Of a stretch of DNA of 64,000 nt, positions 13,539 to 57,763 are shown piece after piece (position 1 is the first letter of the stretch; each line of letters starts with the position of its first letter). The translations under genes and the position numbers were made by a program. Location of the stretch: assembly GCA_052168235.1 (NCBI GenBank), contig JBQLZK010000034.1, forward strand, positions 1 through 64,000. Direction: 5' to 3'. The notes below the pieces were generated by a model. The model was given only the letters and a program-made list of their open reading frames with translations. It made no database searches and had not been told where the DNA came from. Source of the DNA: Thainema sp. (lineage in GTDB: Bacteria; Cyanobacteriota; Cyanobacteriia; Phormidesmidales; Phormidesmidaceae).

Positions 13539-13585
13539 AAACAAGCAGTGAAAGACTGACTAAGTCAGTCTTTCACTGCTTGTTT
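13539..13585. terminator. terminator hairpin after the sugar ABC operon
   Basis: Perfect 22-bp inverted repeat AAACAAGCAGTGAAAGACTGAC. Confidence 0.75.
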
Positions 13586-15019: not shown

Positions 15020-16085
15020 AGACTCAGAAGCAGCAGAGAGTTTACTTCGGTGGCTCTTACAGTCCCCTCACGATTATCCAGATAGGTCATCAGGGGCAGA
15101 TGCCGACAGGGATAGTGAATCCTTGTTCGCTGAGGAGGCTGAGCTGCCGTCACACGAATCATGGGATCCACTGGATTCAGAAGATTTGAGTGATCATTTA
15201 CCGTCTCGTTTGGGATTTCACATTCCAGATGAAGGCGCGGAATCCTCATCACTTGCGTCGGGAGAAAACTTTACAGTGAAACATCATGTGTATGCCCTGC
15301 TCAAACGTCGTTTGAGAATTGAAATTGCACGAAAGCCCCCCTTATTTCCTTGGGAAAAAGAAATTCAAGACTATCCGCTAGACTATGCAGACTGCGTAGA
15401 AGCAGAAGCGGTTCCTGCCATCTTTTGGGAGTCCCAACTGCGGGAATTTCAGTGGCCAGTGGCGCTACCAGCTTCGGTCATGGCAATTTTGATTGAGCGG
15501 GCGCAAGCGGCAATCCAAACCTCTATGAAGTCTGGTCTAAAACTGGTTCAGGTGGTTGAAACCCTGTTTCCAGATGAGCTGCCTACCCTCAACCATTTAG
15601 CTGGTGCGGTGCTAATGTCTCCTAATCGGTCTGGACTATCCAGCCTCTCAGCGACAGAACTACCCTCCAGCTACGAGGATGCGGCTCCGGTACAGCAGAT
15701 GGTATTGTCCCTGCTCGCCGCTCGCGATTTGTTGGACACGCTCACGTTCAAACTCTCGCCAGAACAGCCCCTGCTGGAGCGGCAGTGGCAAACCTCAGTG
15801 GGTGAGATCAAGCTGCAGCTGCAGTACAGTCCTCAGCAACTGACAGTAGACGCTGAACTTCCTACAGGTGGACGAATCTGCTTGGTCAATAGCGCTAATG
15901 ACGTGCGCGATCGCAACTTCGACTCTGCGGTTCTGGCCACACAGCGAGAGGATGCGGGTACACTAAACTTAGTCCTTACTGCCCCCCCAAATCCATCCCT
16001 GCACTACTTTGATTTGATTCTGTCGTCGTCTGATCCATCACCGATTCGGTTTGCGATTCAGATTGGCCCAGATGAAACCCTATAG
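15012..16085 (+). CDS. patU: PatU family protein (PatU5 and PatU3 regions in one ORF)
   Basis: DPLDSE and LLKRRL..EI...PPLFPWE motifs; overlaps the hetZ stop codon. Confidence 0.75.
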   Translation: MNRDSEAAESLLRWLLQSPHDYPDRSSGADADRDSESLFAEEAELPSHESWDPLDSEDLSDHLPSRLGFHIPDEGAESSSLASGENFTVKHHVYALLKRRLRIEIARKPPLFPWEKEIQDYPLDYADCVEAEAVPAIFWESQLREFQWPVALPASVMAILIERAQAAIQTSMKSGLKLVQVVETLFPDELPTLNHLAGAVLMSPNRSGLSSLSATELPSSYEDAAPVQQMVLSLLAARDLLDTLTFKLSPEQPLLERQWQTSVGEIKLQLQYSPQQLTVDAELPTGGRICLVNSANDVRDRNFDSAVLATQREDAGTLNLVLTAPPNPSLHYFDLILSSSDPSPIRFAIQIGPDETL

Positions 16086-16098
16086 AAACGTTTTTAGT

Positions 16099-16137
16099 TT
16101 TCTGTAAAAGTCTCGTGATGCGGGACTTTTACAGAAA
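16099..16137. terminator. terminator-like hairpin after patU
   Basis: TTTCTGTAAAAGTC...GACTTTTACAGAAA. Confidence 0.6.
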
Positions 16138-26360: not shown

Positions 26361-27134
26361 CTAACCCTTCACTGTGGCAACTTCCCTTCCCCTCAGCAAA
26401 TCCATAATTTCCTCCCGATACGTGTGAAACTTCGATAGTCGCTTAACGTGATAAGTGCGATCGCACGGTAAATCTATCTCAAACTCCTGCTGCACGGTTC
26501 CTGGACGAGCCGACAGCACATAGATCCGCTGAGAGAGGAAAACCGCTTCTTCGACATCGTGGGTAATCATTAAAATACTGGTGCCTGTTTGTCGCCAGAG
26601 GTCAAGCAAAAACTCCTGCATGGATTCTTTAGTTTGTACGTCCAATGCCCCGAAGGGTTCATCCATCAGCAAAATTTTGGGCTGGCAGGCCAGAGCACGT
26701 GCGATCGCAACTCGCTGTTTCATGCCGCCAGAAAGTTCTTTGGGTAGAGAACCGGCAAATTGAGTCAGGCCGACGACATTGAGATAGTAGGAGGCGCGTT
26801 GGCGACGTTCGGCTTTATCGATGCCTTGTAGTTTGAGGCCAAATTCGACGTTTTTCTGGACGGTCATCCAGGGATAAAGGGTGTAGCTTTGGAACACCAT
26901 GCCTCGGTCGGCTCCTGGGCCAATTACGGGTTGGCCATCGACGATGATTTCGCCGGAGGTAGGCTGATCGAGTCCGGCCACCAAGCGTAGCAGGGTGGAT
27001 TTACCGGAGCCGGATGCGCCAACAACGCAGACAAATTCGCCCGTTTCCACATGAAGGTTAATGTCCTTCAGCGCTACTAGGGTGCCGTTATGAACGGGAA
27101 ACTGCTTATAGAGGTGGTTAATTTCGAGGTGCAT
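26361..27134 (-). CDS. ABC transporter ATP-binding protein (NrtD/TauB-like; putative guanidine uptake)
   Basis: GASGSGKS, LSGGMKQR, LLMDEPFGALD; operon context. Confidence 0.92.
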   Translation of the reverse strand: MHLEINHLYKQFPVHNGTLVALKDINLHVETGEFVCVVGASGSGKSTLLRLVAGLDQPTSGEIIVDGQPVIGPGADRGMVFQSYTLYPWMTVQKNVEFGLKLQGIDKAERRQRASYYLNVVGLTQFAGSLPKELSGGMKQRVAIARALACQPKILLMDEPFGALDVQTKESMQEFLLDLWRQTGTSILMITHDVEEAVFLSQRIYVLSARPGTVQQEFEIDLPCDRTYHVKRLSKFHTYREEIMDLLRGREVATVKG

Positions 27135-27193
27135 AATCGATTCAAAATACTAAACAAAATAGGAGCGGAATTTATATCAATTCGGTGAGTCTC

Positions 27194-27269
27194 GTAGGTT
27201 GGATTTCGCGTTGCTCAACCCAACATTTTCAGGGCTTGTTGGGTTTCGTTATCACTCAACCCAACCTAC
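27194..27269. repeat. REP-like GTAGGTTGG...AACCCAACCTAC repeat
   Basis: Paired palindromic units; the right half recurs at 61022-61051. Confidence 0.7.
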
Positions 27270-27285
27270 AAAATTGATGACTAGC

Positions 27286-28125
27286 TCAAAATGCCCATTT
27301 ACAGGTAAATTTCAAGAGCTGACGAAAGAAGAGATCTAGGCCAAAACCAATCAGCCCCAGCACAATCAAGCAGGCAAAAATCTCATCGGTGTTGAGGAAC
27401 TTCTGAGCGAGCACAATGCGCTTACCGAGGCCAACTTCGGCGGCGAGCAGTTCCGCTACGACCACCAGGTTCCAAGATGTGGCGATGTTGATCCGGAAGG
27501 CGTCAATGATGCTGGGCACCACGTATGGCGTAATCACTTGAAACAACACCTGAGACCGTCTGCCGCCGAGAGTGTAGGTGGATTCAATCAGGTCTTTGGG
27601 CACGAACTTGACCGCATCCATAATCATCAGGATGTTGAAAAATAATGTTCCGATAAAAATCAGCGCGATCTTGGGGGCTTCACCAATGCCCAGGTAGATG
27701 ATCAGTAACGGAATAAACGCGGGCGCAGGCATGTAGCGGAGGATGCCGCTGATCGGTTCAAACAGCGATCGCACACTAGCAAAGGCTCCCATTGCAATAC
27801 CAATCGGCGTAGCAATGATGGCTGAAAGCAAAAAGCCAATGCTGACCCGCGCAAAGCTCGCACCAATGTCCTGCAAGAGAAAGCCTCGCTCCCAAAGGCT
27901 AACCAAGGCAGCAATCACATCAGCGGGACTGGGCAGAAAAACGGGATCAATTTCAGTAAACGCGGTTAGCACCCACCACAGGGTTAGGGGAATCGCAACC
28001 GATAAGATCATTAACGTCCAATTGAGGGACGCTGGAATGGCTTCTGCAATCCGCCAAAAAACCGTGGGTCTGAGCTGTCCAGCAGGTACGCTCAAGGATT
28101 TAGCGGGACCAAAGTCAGGATTCAT
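27286..28125 (-). CDS. ABC transporter permease (SsuC/TauC-like; putative guanidine uptake)
   Basis: FLPSP, RYMPAPAFIPL, VVAEL....GLG; operon context. Confidence 0.92.
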   Translation of the reverse strand: MNPDFGPAKSLSVPAGQLRPTVFWRIAEAIPASLNWTLMILSVAIPLTLWWVLTAFTEIDPVFLPSPADVIAALVSLWERGFLLQDIGASFARVSIGFLLSAIIATPIGIAMGAFASVRSLFEPISGILRYMPAPAFIPLLIIYLGIGEAPKIALIFIGTLFFNILMIMDAVKFVPKDLIESTYTLGGRRSQVLFQVITPYVVPSIIDAFRINIATSWNLVVVAELLAAEVGLGKRIVLAQKFLNTDEIFACLIVLGLIGFGLDLFFRQLLKFTCKWAF

Positions 28126-28237
28126 GATTAGAAATTAAAAATAAGTGTGCGAGGAAGCTGGGTAAGGGCGAAAGGCATTTCGCCCTCAAATAACAGGAAT
28201 TCAAAAATAGGTTGTCTAAGGATTGTGGATTAAATAG

Positions 28238-28321
28238 CCTGTAAACCGTTCTGTCCGTAGGGATACGGCATTGCCGTGTCCCTACCCAAAGATTTCACTC
28301 GTTAAAACCCGCCTTTACAGG
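28238..28321. repeat. mini-element with CCTGTAAA/TTTACAGG ends and a GTAGGG...CCCTAC REP-like hairpin
   Basis: Hairpin GTAGGGATACGGCATTGCCGTGTCCCTAC at 28257-28285. Confidence 0.65.
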
Positions 28322-28345
28322 GTGTACGACAGGGGCACTAACGAC

Positions 28346-29392
28346 TTAACCTGCCTGCGTCGCGGCGTATGCCTCAACAAAACGGCTATCGAAAAGAGTG
28401 GTCAGATCAGGTGCTTCGGGAATAAAACCAACATCCACCATGAAATTGGCCATTTCTTGAGCGGCATAGGGCATGTGCGTCATGTCATCGCCATCGCTAA
28501 AAGCCTCTAGGTTGTCCTCAAGTGTGAACATCCTGGTGCCTTCTTTCAGCATTTGCAGCTCTTCAATCGAGACATTGGCGCGGGCAGCCATGATTTCGTC
28601 GGCCCGTTCGGGATTCTCTTCCATAAAGGCGAGAATATCGAACCAGGTATTGACCATTGCTTGCGCTTGATCAGGCCGCTCGTCAACTAGCGTTTGAGTC
28701 AACACGAGTAGGTCAGGAATCGCTCCCGGATATTCTGCGGACGACAGCAATTCTTTGCTACCTTCTCGCTTCAGCGCCGTCAGCCAAAAGGGAGGAAACG
28801 CACCTACGGCATCCACTTGGCCAGCGGCAAAGGCGGCAGCAGCAGCGCCCGTTTCTAGATCAACAATTTCCACATCATCACGGGACATACCATTCTCTTC
28901 CAGGGCCAGCGTCAGCAAAAAATCATCGACGACGCCTGCTTCCACGGCCACTTTTTTGCCTGACAAGTCCTGAATCGAATTGATGTCTTCCGTGACGATA
29001 ATCTTGTCGTTGCCAGCGGAGTTGTCGTTCACCAAGACAACAACCTCGCCATTCACGGCGTCAGCGGCAAAGGAAATGGTGTCGTTCAGCGTTTGACAGT
29101 TGCCGTCAAGCTGTCCGGCGGCCAAAGCCTCCATTGACGCCAGATAGCCGTCGAACCACTTCAGCTCCACATTGGCTCCGTTTTGCTCAAATAGCCCTTC
29201 CTCTTCCGCGATCGCCCACGGCCACCAGCCCGCCCAGTTGCTATAGCCAATGACAATCGTTTCTCCGGCGGGAGCGGGAGCCACTGCATCGGGCGATTCG
29301 CTCGTCTCTTGGTTTCTGGGTGTACAGCCAACTGCGATCGCAGTTGCCAGCACAAACATGACGCAAAGCGAAAGGAGTCTGCGTAACTTCAT
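28346..29392 (-). CDS. ABC transporter substrate-binding lipoprotein (putative guanidine-binding)
   Basis: Lipobox AVGC; YSNWAGWWPW, NDNSAGND; lies in the gdmH operon. Confidence 0.88.
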   Translation of the reverse strand: MKLRRLLSLCVMFVLATAIAVGCTPRNQETSESPDAVAPAPAGETIVIGYSNWAGWWPWAIAEEEGLFEQNGANVELKWFDGYLASMEALAAGQLDGNCQTLNDTISFAADAVNGEVVVLVNDNSAGNDKIIVTEDINSIQDLSGKKVAVEAGVVDDFLLTLALEENGMSRDDVEIVDLETGAAAAAFAAGQVDAVGAFPPFWLTALKREGSKELLSSAEYPGAIPDLLVLTQTLVDERPDQAQAMVNTWFDILAFMEENPERADEIMAARANVSIEELQMLKEGTRMFTLEDNLEAFSDGDDMTHMPYAAQEMANFMVDVGFIPEAPDLTTLFDSRFVEAYAATQAG

Positions 29393-29470
29393 CAACTTTC
29401 CTCAAAAACAAAACTTCAATCACAGAGAACACGCAACAGGTCACCCACAACAGCCAATCCACCTTTGAAC

Positions 29471-29505
29471 CCAATCCAAAAATCGGCAATCCAAAATCCA
29501 AAATC
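29471..29505. repeat. short tandem heptamer repeat (AATCCAA, STRR-like)
   Basis: CAATCCAAAAATCGGCAATCCAAAATCCAAAATC. Confidence 0.5.
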
Positions 29506-30196
29506 AAATCAAGGCAGGTTCAGTTTGGTGGATCAGGTGAGATCGCACCCAGTCGTACCAGCTATCTAACCCTTCGCCTGTTTTGGTCGAAACCGGGATA
29601 ATCGCGCAGTGGGGATTCATCTGGCGGACGTTGGCTTCAATTTGGGCCAAGTCCACATCTAGGTAAGGCACAAGATCAATTTTGGTGATCAGCAGACAGT
29701 TAGCTTCTTGGAACATCACCGGATATTTCAGCGGTTTGTCCTCTCCTTCTGTGACGCTCAGGAGTGCGACCTTGGCGTGTTCGCCCACTTCAAACTCGGC
29801 TGGGCACACAAGATTGCCAACGTTTTCCACCAGCACCAGGTCAAACTGATTGGGATCGTACTGGTGGCTGAGCTGATGAATGCCGCCCGCCACCATCTTG
29901 GAATCGAGATGGCAAGAGCGTCCGGTGTTGATAGCAATCACGGGTACACCATGCTGCCGGATGCGTTCGGCATCCAGTTCCGTGGTCATATCGCCTTCAA
30001 TCACGGCAATCTTCAAATCAGCGCTCAGTGTGGCAATGGTGCGCTCTAGCAGTGCAGTTTTGCCTGCTCCTGGGCTGCTCATAACGTTGAAGCAGGTGAT
30101 ACCCCACTCGTCGAAATGTTCGCGGTTGTGATCGGCTCCTTCCTGATTCGCATGGAGCAGATTAATTCCCAGAGCGGCGTCTACGGTTTGATGCAT
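29504..30196 (-). CDS. hypB: HypB-type Ni-insertion GTPase (guanidine hydrolase accessory, GhaB-like)
   Basis: [35 protein letters not shown]. Confidence 0.92.
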
Positions 30197-30279
30197 AAGA
30201 ATACAGCGTTAACGGTGTTGATTTCGAAAAATTGAACAAAATACGGTCTTGGTGAGGCTGAAATGGCTTAAGCGAGTGA

Positions 30280-30648
30280 TTACGGCGAATAGCTCGCAGC
30301 AGTGGCATATTCCACCCGATCAATTTTCAGCTCACGGCCCGAACGGATATCTTCCATCGGGCTGCCGCAGTCGGGGCAGGCGTAGCGCAGGCCAATTTCG
30401 GGCTGATACTCCTGCTGGCAGGGATGACAATAGGCAATCAGTGGCACATCTTGAATCACCAATTCGGCTCCGTCTAAAAACGTGCCGCGCGTTTGGGCAT
30501 CAAAGGCAAACTGGAGACCAGCGGGTTCCACGCAGGTAAACTGCCCCACGACCAGATGCACCTTCGCAATGGGCTGCTGCTCCGCTTGCGACTCCCACCA
30601 GTCGCGCAGGGTGATAATCAGCGCTTTGGTCATATCAACTTCATGCAT
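30280..30648 (-). CDS. hypA: HypA-type Ni metallochaperone (GhaA-like)
   Basis: N-terminal MHE, two CxxC motifs, SGREL. Confidence 0.92.
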   Translation of the reverse strand: MHEVDMTKALIITLRDWWESQAEQQPIAKVHLVVGQFTCVEPAGLQFAFDAQTRGTFLDGAELVIQDVPLIAYCHPCQQEYQPEIGLRYACPDCGSPMEDIRSGRELKIDRVEYATAASYSP

Positions 30649-30658
30649 GGGTCATCTC

Positions 30659-31834
30659 CTACTGCCACGGTTCATCGACAACTTGCGCTTCCTCATGGAT
30701 GTAGTTAGGTTTGCCGTTGCGCGGTAGCTGACCGGACAGCACCAAATGCGCCATCGTGTCGCAAATCACGCGGGTCGCCATTAGCGAGGTCATGTCGCTG
30801 ACATCGTAGGGTGGGGACACTTCTACGACTTCGAGGCCGCAAACAGGAGCTTTTTGCACAATTTTGCCCAGTAGATACAGTGCCTCGCGCGGCAGCAGGC
30901 CACCGGGTTCTGGCCAGCCCGTTCCAGGGACGAATCCGGCATCAATACAGTCAATATCGAAGCTAATCCACACGCAGTCGGTACCATCTAGCGCTCGCTC
31001 TAAGGCAAAATCTACGGCGGCATCTAGCCCCATTTCTGTAATATCGGTGACGGTCAGGATATTGGTGCTGCGCTCTCGGCAAACTTTCACGCCGGGGCGA
31101 GGCACTTGCCAGCCGCCAATTCCCAGTTGCACTAGGTTCTTTGCAGGCGCGTTGGCCATGTTGGTCGCATGGAACCAGGGGCAGGTGTGCATCCGCTCAT
31201 CCAAGTCCGTTTCCTGTGTATCCACATGGCGGTCAAAGTGGATAATGCCAACTTTCTTGTCGCCCAGGTGACGGCAAACGCCCCGCACTGTGGGGAAGCC
31301 AATGGAGTGGTCGCCGCCTAGGATGATGGGGAACGCGCCGGAGCTGAAAATATGGGAAATGCCTTTGGAAATTTGGTCGAACGACTTTTCGTTATTCGCC
31401 GGAATCGTGAAGATATCGCCCACGTCGCACAGGGTAATTTGCTCCCGCAGATCCACGCCTAGCTCGAAGTTGTAGGGCGTATACAGGGCTGAAATCCGCC
31501 GAATGCCCTGTGGCCCAAACCGCGTACCGGGTCGATAGGTCGTGCCGGAATCGTGGGGCACCCCCACAATCGCCACATCGTACTCGCCCACCTTCCGCAC
31601 GTCTTCTAGATAGGGCGCTTTCAAAAAAGTATTGATGCCTGCAAAGTGAGGCAGTTCGCCTCGTGAGAAGGTAGAAATTGTGCGATCGCGGATGCTCTCA
31701 GCTGCTTCCAGACCATACTCTAAGCCTTTGGACACTTCCTGCTGCCAGCCCGTCATCGGCAGCTGGGTTTCTTTTTGTAAGGCTCGTTGAGCTTCGGTAT
31801 CCCCTGGATTTTGAAACAATGATTCGTCAGTCAT
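30659..31834 (-). CDS. gdmH: Ni-dependent guanidine hydrolase (ureohydrolase/agmatinase family)
   Basis: GGDHS, HFDRHVD, SFDIDC.D; riboswitch upstream and hypA-hypB-ABC downstream, as in the characterised Synechocystis gdmH operon. Confidence 0.88.
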   Translation of the reverse strand: MTDESLFQNPGDTEAQRALQKETQLPMTGWQQEVSKGLEYGLEAAESIRDRTISTFSRGELPHFAGINTFLKAPYLEDVRKVGEYDVAIVGVPHDSGTTYRPGTRFGPQGIRRISALYTPYNFELGVDLREQITLCDVGDIFTIPANNEKSFDQISKGISHIFSSGAFPIILGGDHSIGFPTVRGVCRHLGDKKVGIIHFDRHVDTQETDLDERMHTCPWFHATNMANAPAKNLVQLGIGGWQVPRPGVKVCRERSTNILTVTDITEMGLDAAVDFALERALDGTDCVWISFDIDCIDAGFVPGTGWPEPGGLLPREALYLLGKIVQKAPVCGLEVVEVSPPYDVSDMTSLMATRVICDTMAHLVLSGQLPRNGKPNYIHEEAQVVDEPWQ

Positions 31835-31943
31835 GAACTCAGGCACCTAAATAAATTGGGTCGAATCTGTTATAGGTCAATGCCAGCAATCGCGAGCGAA
31901 AATTTTGCCCCAGATTCCCATTCAATCAACAAAAATTAGCTAC

Positions 31944-32000
31944 AAAAAAACCGGGGAAACGCAAACAAAGCTGCTAACCTTGCTGCTGTTTCTCCCGGGC
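31944..32000 (-). terminator. riboswitch expression-platform terminator
   Basis: On the minus strand CCGGGAGAAAC...GTTTCCCCGG then TTTTTTT; the 5' arm overlaps the aptamer 3' tail. Confidence 0.85.
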
Positions 32001-32222
32001 TTTTATCCCGCCGTGTGACCAAGTTTGTCACGTCAACTGGTGCAAATTACTTGGCTGCCCCTCTTGGACCAGACACGATGGCTATATCTTGCAAATCCGT
32101 CAATAAAAACCGAGTAATAGTTTGGATGAGAGGCAGACTTCGCCTGCCTCTCATCCAAACTATGCTGGGATCTCATAACCGGAACTTGCATGAGACATTG
32201 CTAAAGCCGGAACCCTAGAAGC
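31990..32222 (-). ncRNA. guanidine-I (ykkC-yxkD) riboswitch with a large insertion
   Basis: Minus-strand CTAGGGTTCCG ... CTGGTCCAAGAG ... ACACGGCGGGATAAAAGCCCGGGAG. Confidence 0.93.
32089..32191. mobile_element. ~103-bp mini-element (terminal inverted repeats + hairpin) inside the riboswitch
   Basis: Perfect 20-bp hairpin at 32117-32163; flanks resemble the elements at 40766-40866 and 57310-57400. Confidence 0.6.
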
Positions 32223-32290
32223 AATTTTGGATGAATTAAAGAGTTTGAGTTGTCTAGTCCAAGAAATACCAATCTGCCGCTGAGGCAGAG

Positions 32291-32304
32291 GTAGCTTCTG
32301 ATAC
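32291..32304 (-). promoter_or_regulatory. NtcA binding site
   Basis: Perfect GTA-N8-TAC (GTAGCTTCTGATAC), 22 nt upstream of a weak -10 (TATTTC) oriented toward the riboswitch. Confidence 0.8.
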
Positions 32305-32416
32305 AAAAATGGAAATCGTTCAGCTCAAACGCTTGATGTGGACAGAACCAGCCAGTTTTTCGGCACCTGCCATCTTTCGTTACAATAGTTAACTAAGCAA
32401 AACTTAAAGTATTCAA

Positions 32417-32612
32417 GATGCGTTAGGTACTGACGGTACGTATTGAGCGTAGTTGTCCGATCCCCCGCTGTCGCCGCCCCCTTGAAAAAGGGGCTATACC
32501 ACCGCTAGCTCAAAGTCCCCCTTTTTCTAGGCGAAGCCATGCCCAAAGGGCTATAGGGGGATTTAGGGGGATCTGTCAGAGTATTTCGCTAAACAAGTAC
32601 CGCTAACGCATC
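32417..32612. repeat. MITE-like element with GATGCGTTAG terminal inverted repeats and a CCCCC/GGGGGATTTAGGGGGATCT core
   Basis: Terminal inverted repeats; the core is shared with 60323-60399. Confidence 0.65.
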
Positions 32613-40414: not shown

Positions 40415-40509
40415 GCATAAGACTTTGCGCGAGTTGATACACGACCAAAAGCGGGATCAAAAGTTTTGGTCAAACCGAACTACCTCACTACGAGTAATAT
40501 CGACATCAA

Positions 40510-40599
40510 TAGACTTTATGGGAAATTGTTTTGTAGCGCGGCGGAGCCGCGCTACAAAACAATTTCCAACCCCAAAAACTTTATTTCCAATAAAGTCTA
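40510..40599. repeat. mini-element with terminal inverted repeats and a hairpin
   Basis: 17-bp terminal inverted repeat with 1 mismatch (TAGACTTTATGGGAAAT); internal 22-bp perfect hairpin GGAAATTGTTTTGTAGCGCGGC. Confidence 0.7.
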
Positions 40600-40765
40600 A
40601 TATCATCCGATCGCGCCAACAATCACTTTTCCCCAACGCGGCAGCTTCATGGTGTTCTGTTTTATGACAGTTCAGCTCTAATCTAACTGTGTCTATTGGC
40701 AGCTGTCACGGTGCGCTGAATACGAAAATCCCTTTCCCGCTTTGGGAAGGGATTTTGGAGCGTTA

Positions 40766-40866
40766 TACGAAGTCCAGTTAAAACCCGATAATTTATTGTT
40801 GGAAAAAAGCAGGCTAAGCCTGCCTTTTTCCAACAATAGTTCAGGTTCCTGTACACGGACTTGATA
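40766..40866. mobile_element. mini-element of the TATCAAGT family abutting a stop codon
   Basis: AAAACCCGATAATT + hairpin at 40794-40838 + GGACTTGATA, directly next to the stop codon at 40867. Confidence 0.65.
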
Positions 40867-41502
40867 TTACTTCGGATCGTAAGACCAACCTTGAGGCACA
40901 TCCATTCCGTCTCGATTGGTGCGCTCTTCGGCAGGACGAACACCAGACTTATCGATTAAACGTACCGTACTTGCCTGCGGCCCTTCTCGACCTTCCGTCA
41001 CAAAAAACTGGACACCCGAACCGACTCGTAGCCGATCGAAGTCGCTATGTAAGACGCTATTGCGGTGGAAATACACGTCTTGGCCTTCTGGAGTCTTCAA
41101 AAAGCCATAATCTTCGGCGGGAAACAACTTGGTGACGATACCGCCAACAGCTTGTTCTGGATGGCTCTTAACGTGATTCTGCTGCTTCTCGGTCAGCGTT
41201 TGTAATTGGCGGCGGGCCGCATCGAAAGCCTCCCGAATCACCGACTCCAGTGTGTCATACTGCACACCTTCACTGGGATTCTTATCCACTGCTAATTCGT
41301 GACCGGGCGGAACCATCAAATCCAGTCGCACTCGATAGGGCGAACCGTGGCTGGGATGGGTATGAGCACGTTCAACCGCGACGTGGCAACTGATAATGTG
41401 ATCGCAAACTTCTTCGAGTTTTTCCATTTTGCTGCGAATCAAACTATCGATCGCACTGCTTTTTTCAACGTCTCGATAAGTGATATCTAATGGTACTTGC
41501 AT
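40867..41502 (-). CDS. HPF/RaiA ribosome hibernation domain fused to a cold-shock domain
   Basis: N-terminal S30AE-like region (I..CHV.VE, AFDAARRQL) and CSD motifs YGFL, VYFH, GPQA. Confidence 0.88.
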   Translation of the reverse strand: MQVPLDITYRDVEKSSAIDSLIRSKMEKLEEVCDHIISCHVAVERAHTHPSHGSPYRVRLDLMVPPGHELAVDKNPSEGVQYDTLESVIREAFDAARRQLQTLTEKQQNHVKSHPEQAVGGIVTKLFPAEDYGFLKTPEGQDVYFHRNSVLHSDFDRLRVGSGVQFFVTEGREGPQASTVRLIDKSGVRPAEERTNRDGMDVPQGWSYDPK

Positions 41503-57260: not shown

Positions 57261-57309
57261 GGGATCTACTCAGCCTGGAACAGTCTGCACTACGTTAAGC
57301 ACCCGCTGA

Positions 57310-57400
57310 TATCAAGTTGATCTCTCAAAACCCGATTATTTTCTGTGAAAAGCCTGGGGACAGACCTTTCACAGAAACGGGATGTTAACCAGACTTGATA
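57310..57400. mobile_element. mini-element of the TATCAAGT family abutting the ndhM stop codon
   Basis: Perfect TATCAAGT/ACTTGATA ends, AAAACCCGATTATT, TTTCTGTGAAA hairpin. Confidence 0.65.
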
Positions 57401-57763
57401 CTAGGCTTTCTTTTCGTCACTGACGACTTGAGGTAAGCCCATACTGTAGTTCAGTACGCGGCTCTTGATGTTATAGCTAATTTCGCCATTTTGAAGTAGC
57501 GATCGCACAAAATGCTCCAAGTCTGATCCAATGCGCCGCAGATTATAGTCGGTTAAATCTTCGCCGCTGTAGGCTTCTACGAGTTCATCAAACTTGCGAT
57601 ACACCTTCTGGAGGGCATCTTCATTCCAGTTCAGCTCATTATCTGGATCAATATCCAGCGTTAGAACGCTGTCGCTGGGTACAAATTCATCATCCTGAAC
57701 TTCAGCAGCAAAAATTCGGATATGACGAGTTGTAGACTTGGTTAACGTAGACTGGGTTGACAT
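57401..57763 (-). CDS. ndhM: NAD(P)H-quinone oxidoreductase subunit M
   Basis: KSTTRHIRIF, LTLDIDPDNE, YNLRRIGSDLEHF, LNYSMGLP. Confidence 0.95.
   Translation of the reverse strand: MSTQSTLTKSTTRHIRIFAAEVQDDEFVPSDSVLTLDIDPDNELNWNEDALQKVYRKFDELVEAYSGEDLTDYNLRRIGSDLEHFVRSLLQNGEISYNIKSRVLNYSMGLPQVVSDEKKA

Follow-up and report, generated by a model that had tools for sequence, protein, structure and literature searches.

Introduction

The closest described counterpart of the locus presented here is the cyanobacterial guanidine-I/gdmH system. According to the part of PMC12704784 considered here, from which we also take the gha and gim gene names, the gdmH-ghaA-ghaB-gimABC arrangement is known from cyanobacteria, and guanidine binding as well as ON-switch activity have been demonstrated for the RF00442 riboswitch located upstream of gdmH (sll1077) in Synechocystis. 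Riboswitch aptamers can also contain "variable insertions", which are described in the relevant part of the work by Barrick and Breaker (2007; PMC2258182) as long, non-conserved stem-loops at tolerant sites that give genuine but low-scoring covariance-model matches. A separate line of work concerns prokaryotic MITEs and other hairpin repeats (Correia/NEMIS, ERIC, BOX, REPIN), which are co-transcribed and fold as RNA, as stated in the part of PMC10969869 used here. Riboswitch-like motifs within repeats are mentioned in this article and in PMC3184786; the sections of both articles on which we draw hold no mention of a repeat inside an aptamer, and we found no explicit published case of a repeat element inside a riboswitch aptamer in the open literature.

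Here, we analyze a 64,000-nt stretch of DNA from Thainema sp. (hereafter referred to as the window), which belongs to a draft genome of 7.54 Mb in 205 contigs (G000). The window contains a guanidine-I riboswitch whose peripheral helix P1b is extended by a long hairpin-forming block. We compare this riboswitch with the orthologous, insert-free leader of a sister species (G001) and with a repeat family dispersed in both genomes.

Results

A guanidine-I riboswitch precedes a gdmH-type operon

The riboswitch and its downstream genes are encoded on the minus strand of the window and comprise the following features:

31990..32224, minus strand: guanidine-I (ykkC, RF00442) aptamer including the insert, from a partial cmscan match and directly read motifs
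32224-32220, minus strand: 5' strand of P1, UGCUU (motif reading)
32218-32207, minus strand: conserved CUAGGGUUCCGG (motif reading)
32215-32208, minus strand: GGGTTCCG (motif reading)
32072-32061, minus strand: CTGGTCCAAGAG (motif reading)
32072-32061, minus strand: conserved CUGGUCCAAGAG (motif reading)
about 32049-32013, minus strand: P2 hairpin
end near 31990, minus strand: P3 with conserved ACACGGCGGGAUAAAAGCCCGGGAGA
31945..31998, minus strand: expression platform, a terminator hairpin whose 5' arm is the 3' strand of P3 (CCGGGAGAAAC ... GUUUCCCCGG), followed by U7
30659..31846, minus strand: gdmH-like gene, arginase-family guanidine hydrolase of 395 aa (Pfam Arginase, E = 1.1e-76)
26361..30648, minus strand: rest of the operon after gdmH, from ghaA to the ATPase gene, with the five genes below
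30280-30648, minus strand: HypA-like ghaA (ORF list and Pfam)
29504-30196, minus strand: HypB/CobW-like ghaB (ORF list and Pfam)
28346-29395, minus strand: ABC substrate-binding protein, NMT1-type (ORF list and Pfam)
27286-28125, minus strand: ABC permease (ORF list and Pfam)
26361-27134, minus strand: ABC ATPase (ORF list and Pfam)

The conserved core nucleotides of RF00442, i.e. CUAGGGUUCCG, CUGGUCC(G/A)AGAG, and ACACGG.GGGA.AAAAGCCCGGGAG, were found by direct reading, with the 3' part being aligned by cmscan as well, and the downstream conserved ACACGGCGGGATAAAAGCCCGGGAGA was read on the same strand of the aptamer. A lone G-to-A change in GGUCCAAGAG is common to G001, whose leader passes Rfam. 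The P1 pairing (UGCUU/GGGCA) was assigned by visual inspection; predicted folds contained the rod of P1b, the hairpin of P2, and P3 with the terminator. P2 measures 44 nt in the window, which lies inside the 19-65 nt of its relatives, and the flanks are homologous to RF00442 matches in relatives.

The terminator folds with -27.8 kcal/mol (z = -3.5; fold of 32010-31935). It is absent from the output of a simple terminator scan, and a simple promoter scan of 31800-32450 returned no promoter. The gdmH-like gene is the first gene downstream of the riboswitch and its protein is 98% identical to the G001 orthologue; all six ORFs of the operon are intact. This context (gdmH-like, HypA, HypB, and ABC genes) is the one expected for the guanidine-I class. 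Overall, the locus shares with the Synechocystis-type system the conserved nucleotides, a predicted P1/P1a/P1b/P2/P3 layout, the terminator overlapping P3, and the gdmH-ghaA-ghaB-ABC importer operon, whereas it departs from it in a P1b of 135 nt, as opposed to a few tens of nt, and in an Rfam score of 37.6 bits compared with a cut-off of 63.

Several observations relate to the surroundings of this riboswitch and of gdmH loci in other genomes. Just upstream of the leader, a terminator-like hairpin with a T-rich tail (32273-32289, minus strand) possibly terminates the minus-strand transcription unit that precedes it. In metatranscriptome run X9, an RNA contig from a relative extends from gdmH through the leader and ends in adapter sequence at about 32240, i.e. 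~20 nt upstream of the aptamer; given that contigs cannot prove starts, this end provides a weak hint at the transcript-start region. Paired guanidine-I riboswitches are present near gdmH in two relatives' loci, L003 (815-931, minus, and 1225-1384, plus) and L027 (two instances), and the opposite-strand pairs look as if divergent operons were both controlled by guanidine. In another relative's locus (L020, 3960-4016), a match to the nitrogen stress-induced sRNA NsiR1 adjoins the gdmH locus, which fits the control of these genes by nitrogen limitation covered in the part of PMC12704784 considered here.

The extended riboswitch falls below the Rfam threshold

The Rfam gathering cut-off for RF00442 is 63 bits. 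At this threshold, a tRNA was the sole match in the 64-kb window and RF00442 was not found. When cmscan was run on 31800-32400 with an E-value threshold, RF00442 was recovered at 37.6 bits (E = 3.5e-5, 32125-31990); the 3' two-thirds of the match were correctly aligned, and the true 5' CUAGGGUUCCGG was skipped, with the corresponding model positions forced into the insert. In a joint scan of gdmH loci, 16 of the 19 loci from relatives had RF00442 above the cut-off (17 matches of 63.9-90.6 bits), the window's own locus did not, and L010, L012, and L017 were the three loci from relatives with no such match. The orthologous G001 leader, which we used as the natural insert-free form for comparison, scores 64.3 bits. 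We therefore attribute the sub-threshold score of the window to its insertion of more than 100 nt. An earlier reading of the locus, made from the sequence only, had warned that covariance-model searches might miss the riboswitch, and at the gathering threshold they do (37.6 vs 63 bits).

P1b is predicted to form a single, unusually long rod

P1b is the terminal, length-variable helix of the Rfam model. In the window, it includes two features:

32073..32207, minus strand: P1b segment, 135 nt, a single long unbranched rod (fold and length comparison)
32118..32164, minus strand: apical hairpin of the insert, in which 22 uninterrupted pairs enclose a loop of 3 nt (folds)

The sequence-only reading had counted 135 nt between the motifs at 32208-32215 and 32061-32072, and this number is exact (32207-32073), as are the other positions and counts of that reading. 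It had further stated that the class usually has a short variable stem at this place, which agrees with the lengths determined in relatives. A search with the GdmH protein covered 60 relatives and was positive for 55 (56 of 61 genomes with the own one counted), from which 30 loci were taken, the own locus included. A motif scan of the 29 relatives' loci identified 27 guanidine-I instances in 25 loci, with no match to the regular expression in L010, L012, L017, and L024. In these 27 instances, P1b spans 19-69 nt with a median of 30 nt, compared with 135 nt in the window; the second-longest P1b listed (69 nt) is found in L004 of genome G025.

The P1b segment folds with a minimum free energy (MFE) of -64.8 kcal/mol, compared with a mean of -31.5 kcal/mol for shuffled sequences (z = -9.4), and none of 200 shuffles was as stable. 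The structure matches the earlier description of one long stem capped by a perfect hairpin: it is an unbranched rod with an apical run of 22 pairs, and this perfect 22-bp duplex is part of a helix exceeding 45 bp, in which the outer stem pairs UGCAAGU.CCG with CGG.AUUUGCA. The apical hairpin aligns with the covarying central hairpin of a repeat family (family A, see below). Removal of 32089-32191, predicted to leave a stem of ~32 nt, leaves 32 nt, and P1b of G001 has 35 nt.

Two relatives carry a short tip at the site of the insert

Comparison with G001 delimits the insert as follows:

32089..32188, minus strand: insert core, minimum extent, equal to the alignment gap relative to G001 (MAFFT)
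32077..32199, minus strand: maximum non-homologous block, 123 nt, corresponding to 23 nt in G001 and in the X9 contig

Apart from a gap of 100 columns at 32188-32089 in the MAFFT alignment, the leader is collinear with that of G001. When the 123-nt block is compared with the 23-nt tip of G001, identity is limited to 9 of the 23 aligned columns, and the blastn alignment breaks at both borders. The X9 metatranscriptome contig, which originates from an organism of 90-95% similarity, joins 32076 to 32200 via 23 letters of the G001 type. Thus, two relatives carry the 23-nt tip, i.e. an empty site. The borders of the insert are uncertain by ~10 nt per side, giving a size of about 100-123 nt, and the non-homologous block roughly coincides with the match to the family A covariance model (32083-32199). 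The proposal of an insertion of ~103 bp is therefore right in that the extra block is real, and requires correction in that the insertion is not clean, with 123 nt replacing 23 nt. Among DNA contigs, X1 ends at 32002 (and resumes at 32211), X2 at 32030, and X3 at 31979, so that none spans the insert, and RNA of the inserted form was not found among public runs.

The short tips in these two relatives, together with the short P1b of other genera, provide no series of intermediate lengths. Instead of a gradually expanded stem, we find a P1b that is a length outlier with no intermediates among the 27 instances. Given that family A was found only in this genus and that P1b is short in other genera, parsimony favors one event, a gain in G000, over an earlier gain that was later reversed, and the insert would therefore represent a gain in the lineage of the window rather than a loss in its relatives.

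The insert resembles members of a genus-specific repeat family

An outer-stem regular expression retrieved elements of about 95 nt from the own genome, and profiles built thereafter defined family A as a set of at least 200 non-coding copies of about 95-110 nt; in G000, the profile search returned 201 distinct loci at E <= 1e-8. The window itself contains two copies:

40762..40870, plus strand: family A copy (nhmmer E = 2.2e-20), a seed of covariance model R1
57306..57404, minus strand: family A copy (nhmmer E = 1e-11), site empty in G001

Family A ends in terminal inverted repeats, T.ATAT(G/C)AAGTC ... GACTT(G/C)ATAT.A, and the inverted ends of the insert (UGCAAGUUCCG / CGGAUUUGCA) are 4-6 nt longer than these. 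Insert and family have the order of motifs in common, namely AAGU.CCGG, the hairpin, UCGGUUUU, and CGGA.UUG. A first nhmmer profile, made from 14 seeds of mixed orientation, gave no match to the insert at E <= 10; a profile of 202 copies matched it at 32104-32193 with E = 1.1e-4 genome-wide (E = 2.7e-4 on the other strand). Covariance model R1 was built from 22 diverse family A members, leaving out the insert, and has a consensus with a central hairpin of 17 pairs, 16 of which show compensatory changes. R1 scores the insert with 48.5 bits across model positions 1-119 (32199-32083; rough E = 1e-7 for the window), making it the only full-length non-seed match in the window, compared with 29.2 bits or less, restricted to model positions 41-97, for unrelated window hairpins. 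By both approaches, the insert matches a family with copies elsewhere in its genome. At E <= 1e-5 per genome, R1 matches number 150 or more in both G000 and G001. None was obtained in 19 further genomes from the same family and class, for each of which 150 loosely pre-filtered candidates were scored, so that the 21 genomes searched place family A solely in this genus.

Half-profiles of the left or right flank of family A gave no significant match to the insert (best E = 270), and the hairpin region supplies much of its family A score. No second copy of the insert was found in the own draft genome (blastn-short); no close copy was found in G001, where a DNA search yielded chance-level matches of 15-30 nt (E >= 1.4); and exact 33-mers of the insert had 0 matches in each of two large collections, one of genome contigs and one of metagenome contigs. 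Given these null results of the half-profiles, the extra nucleotides at the ends, and the lack of a close copy, we rate the membership of the insert in family A, as judged by sequence comparison, as likely rather than proven. The flanks of the insert had previously been equated with elements at 40766 and 57310. These elements do belong to the same family, to which the insert is connected by a weaker match (nhmmer and R1); the flanks on their own are not significant. Likewise, the idea that a mobile element landed in the aptamer gains from the empty site and from the match to an apparently mobile family, and is weakened by the distance of this match and the lack of a close copy.

The alignment of the 22 family A copies offers a further observation, i.e. 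that 16 of 17 pairs of the central hairpin display compensatory double changes within one genome. Such covariation is unusual for decaying selfish DNA and hints at selection for the palindrome, or at a copying process that restores it.

Family A differs in presence between sister species

Two other family A copies coincide with empty sites in G001. For the copy at 57308-57402, the G001 match covers query positions 2-458 and 554-992, with 1 nt between the two segments, and for a copy at L051 1507-1612 it covers positions 6-607 and 714-1321, with 2 nt in between. The copies at 40762-40870 and on L053 were left out of this evidence because synteny with G001 did not extend across both of their flanks. 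Family A thus replaces only 1-2 unrelated nt at these two sites, vs 23 nt at the riboswitch.

Classical MITEs carry a target duplication. No target-site duplication was found for family A, as direct repeats of 2-5 nt occurred at chance level in 197 copies. An autonomous parent was not found either: 26 solitary matches to the ends were obtained from the genome, none of them paired at a distance of 0.5-3 kb, in a draft assembly that can hide insertion sequences. We conclude that family A is MITE-like in size, copy number, inverted ends, and presence/absence differences, yet lacks the target duplication. Given that neither a target duplication nor an autonomous partner was found, we use the term MITE as a description and not to denote a mechanism.

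Other arrangements of such repeats were also noted. The central hairpin occurs alone, without family A ends, at 13543-13581 and 16081-16137 of the window and at G000:C23:57247-57308, C46:15608-15663, and C64:3451-3517; conversely, left and right family A ends are found back to back without the hairpin. These arrangements suggest that the family A element is built of two separable modules. A second family in G000 (family B; about 91 nt; 144 distinct loci at E <= 1e-5, for example G000:C7:12518-12608 and C36:32320-32410) has the ends ATCTTGCAC...GTGCAAGAT and a GC-rich central hairpin, and follows the layout of family A with end, GAAAACCC-like box, hairpin, GGGTT box, and end. Family B was considered as a source of the insert, whose outermost bases resemble the ATCTTGCAC-type ends, and was dismissed as its profile misses the insert at E <= 10. 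Yet another repeat, ~95 nt long, is located at 40505-40603 of the window (hairpin at 40525-40565) and has at least 14 copies in G001 at 90-97% identity; R1 touches only its hairpin.

Aptamer core and terminator are conserved next to the insert

Aptamer core and terminator are identical to G001 at 102 of 105 positions (segments of 24/25, 26/27, and 52/53), the last segment representing P3 and the terminator (32012-31960). In comparison, 50 of 200 four-fold sites in gdmH differ from G001 (25%; CDS identity of 90.6%). If the insertion is old, about a dozen changes would be expected in the 105 sites under one-branch neutrality. The conservation of core and terminator relative to the four-fold divergence favors a guanidine response that has been retained.

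Predicted structures were compared between the leaders of the window and G001. The basal P1b pairs beside the core are weaker in the window. In MFE folds of growing transcripts, the 5' arm of the insert (CCGG, CCC) pairs with the 5' aptamer strand at prefixes of 93-117 nt. Of the 11 prefixes of 189 nt or more, 5 have native-like P1/P1a as their optimum, vs 12 of 12 G001 prefixes of 93 nt or more. At full length, the MFE structures of both leaders contain native-like P1/P1a. These simple folding predictions suggest that the native fold might be less robust with the insert, and we take them as a mere hint given that MFE calculations ignore tertiary contacts and the ligand.

Discussion

We consider it reasonably probable that the guanidine-I riboswitch studied here carries a repeat-derived rod in P1b and that this rod is probably tolerated. 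In this model, the riboswitch would control the gdmH-ghaAB and ABC importer operon as a transcriptional ON switch, in which bound guanidine keeps P3 within the aptamer and thereby blocks formation of the overlapping terminator. A hairpin-forming, non-coding repeat would have inserted into the far end of P1b, a peripheral helix, swapping a tip of about 23 nt for about 100-123 nt. The inserted element would be a divergent member of a genus-specific, MITE-like family without target duplication. Because the element is nearly palindromic, its RNA is expected to form a rod that extends P1b coaxially, and closure of this rod would reunite both halves of the aptamer, leaving the ligand-binding core, P1/P1a, P2, P3, and the terminator unchanged. 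The switch would then most likely still be functional, perhaps with slower or less robust folding. Within this model, we infer the direction of the event (a gain), the way in which the element moves, and the retained response to guanidine.

A different outcome of the same event is that the insertion, being recent, crippled the switch: the aptamer might fold too late, resulting in either constitutive termination and a silent operon, or constitutive read-through. The Rfam score reduced to 37.6 bits, the basal P1b pairs that are weaker than in G001, and the capture of the 5' aptamer strand by the 5' arm of the insert at 93-117 nt, with native-like structures in 5 of 11 compared with 12 of 12 prefixes, would all fit such a defect. 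Yet, core and terminator have kept 102 of 105 positions in common with G001 in the face of 25% four-fold divergence, the six operon ORFs are intact with GdmH being 98% identical, and the lack of a close relative of the insert in the genome speaks against its having arrived very recently. Native-like P1/P1a is also present in the MFE structure of the full-length leader, in a calculation that leaves out tertiary contacts and the ligand. Taken together, we regard loss of switch function as rather unlikely. At the other end of the spectrum, the rod might have been exapted and now be part of the regulator, for instance with its duplex being processed by a double-strand-specific RNase, or with its roughly 100 additional nt introducing a delay between one aptamer half and the other, which would retune the switch. 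The 22 uninterrupted apical pairs, which persist despite the distance from the family consensus, and the strongly conserved leader around them would be compatible with such a role; however, selection is not needed to keep a palindrome perfect, G001 as the sister species manages without the insert, and the insert is present in one genome only, so that its own conservation is not measurable. We assign exaptation a very low probability. If true, the guanidine switch would differ from that of the sister species in its kinetics or in mRNA stability.

The origin of the block is a separate question, and a lineage-specific expansion of the stem, either by growth of a palindrome or by capture of a fragment during repair, would not involve a mobile element at all. 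The likeness to family A would then merely reflect that both are long hairpins with A/T-rich flanks. The flank-only profiles without significant match, the absence of a close copy from the own genome, from G001, and from the contig collections searched, the absence of a target duplication, and ends that reach 4-6 nt beyond those of family A are in line with this possibility. It is, on the other hand, difficult to reconcile with R1, a model that treats paired columns jointly and was built with the insert excluded, which gives the insert 48.5 bits vs at most 29.2 bits for plain hairpins of the window, and with the nhmmer E-value of 1.1e-4 across 7.5 Mb. The motifs shared with family A are also arranged in the same order, and no genome outside the genus reached a comparable score (19 genomes, best 150 candidates each). 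We thus deem a non-mobile origin improbable.

Assuming that a tolerated, repeat-derived rod is the correct reading, the insert has features of two known phenomena. Like the variable insertions described in the part of PMC2258182 considered here, it consists of a long stem-loop without sequence conservation, placed where the periphery of the aptamer is tolerant and the core need not be affected; unlike these, it has an origin that can be followed back to a family of dispersed repeats, and a sister species provides the empty site. Family A, in turn, resembles prokaryotic MITEs and hairpin repeats in being small and non-coding, in having terminal inverted repeats, hundreds of copies, and a stable hairpin, as well as in its restriction to one lineage and its presence/absence differences between species. 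It differs from such MITEs in that neither a target-site duplication nor an autonomous parent was found, and in the covariation of 16 of 17 hairpin pairs. With respect to family A, the riboswitch copy is a distant, single-copy variant.

The locus also exposes a blind spot of annotation, given that a riboswitch with an intact core in the right gene context is missed at the curated threshold of Rfam. Surveys of guanidine regulation in repeat-rich cyanobacteria will therefore under-count. Our understanding of guanidine-I riboswitches or of such repeats is unchanged by this find, which represents a fairly ordinary, probably tolerated insertion. It does provide a concrete and datable example of how long variable insertions can arise, with the empty site of the sister species as a control, and the two natural leaders, one carrying the rod and one lacking it, would make it possible to ask how much additional peripheral RNA is compatible with an ON switch that folds co-transcriptionally.
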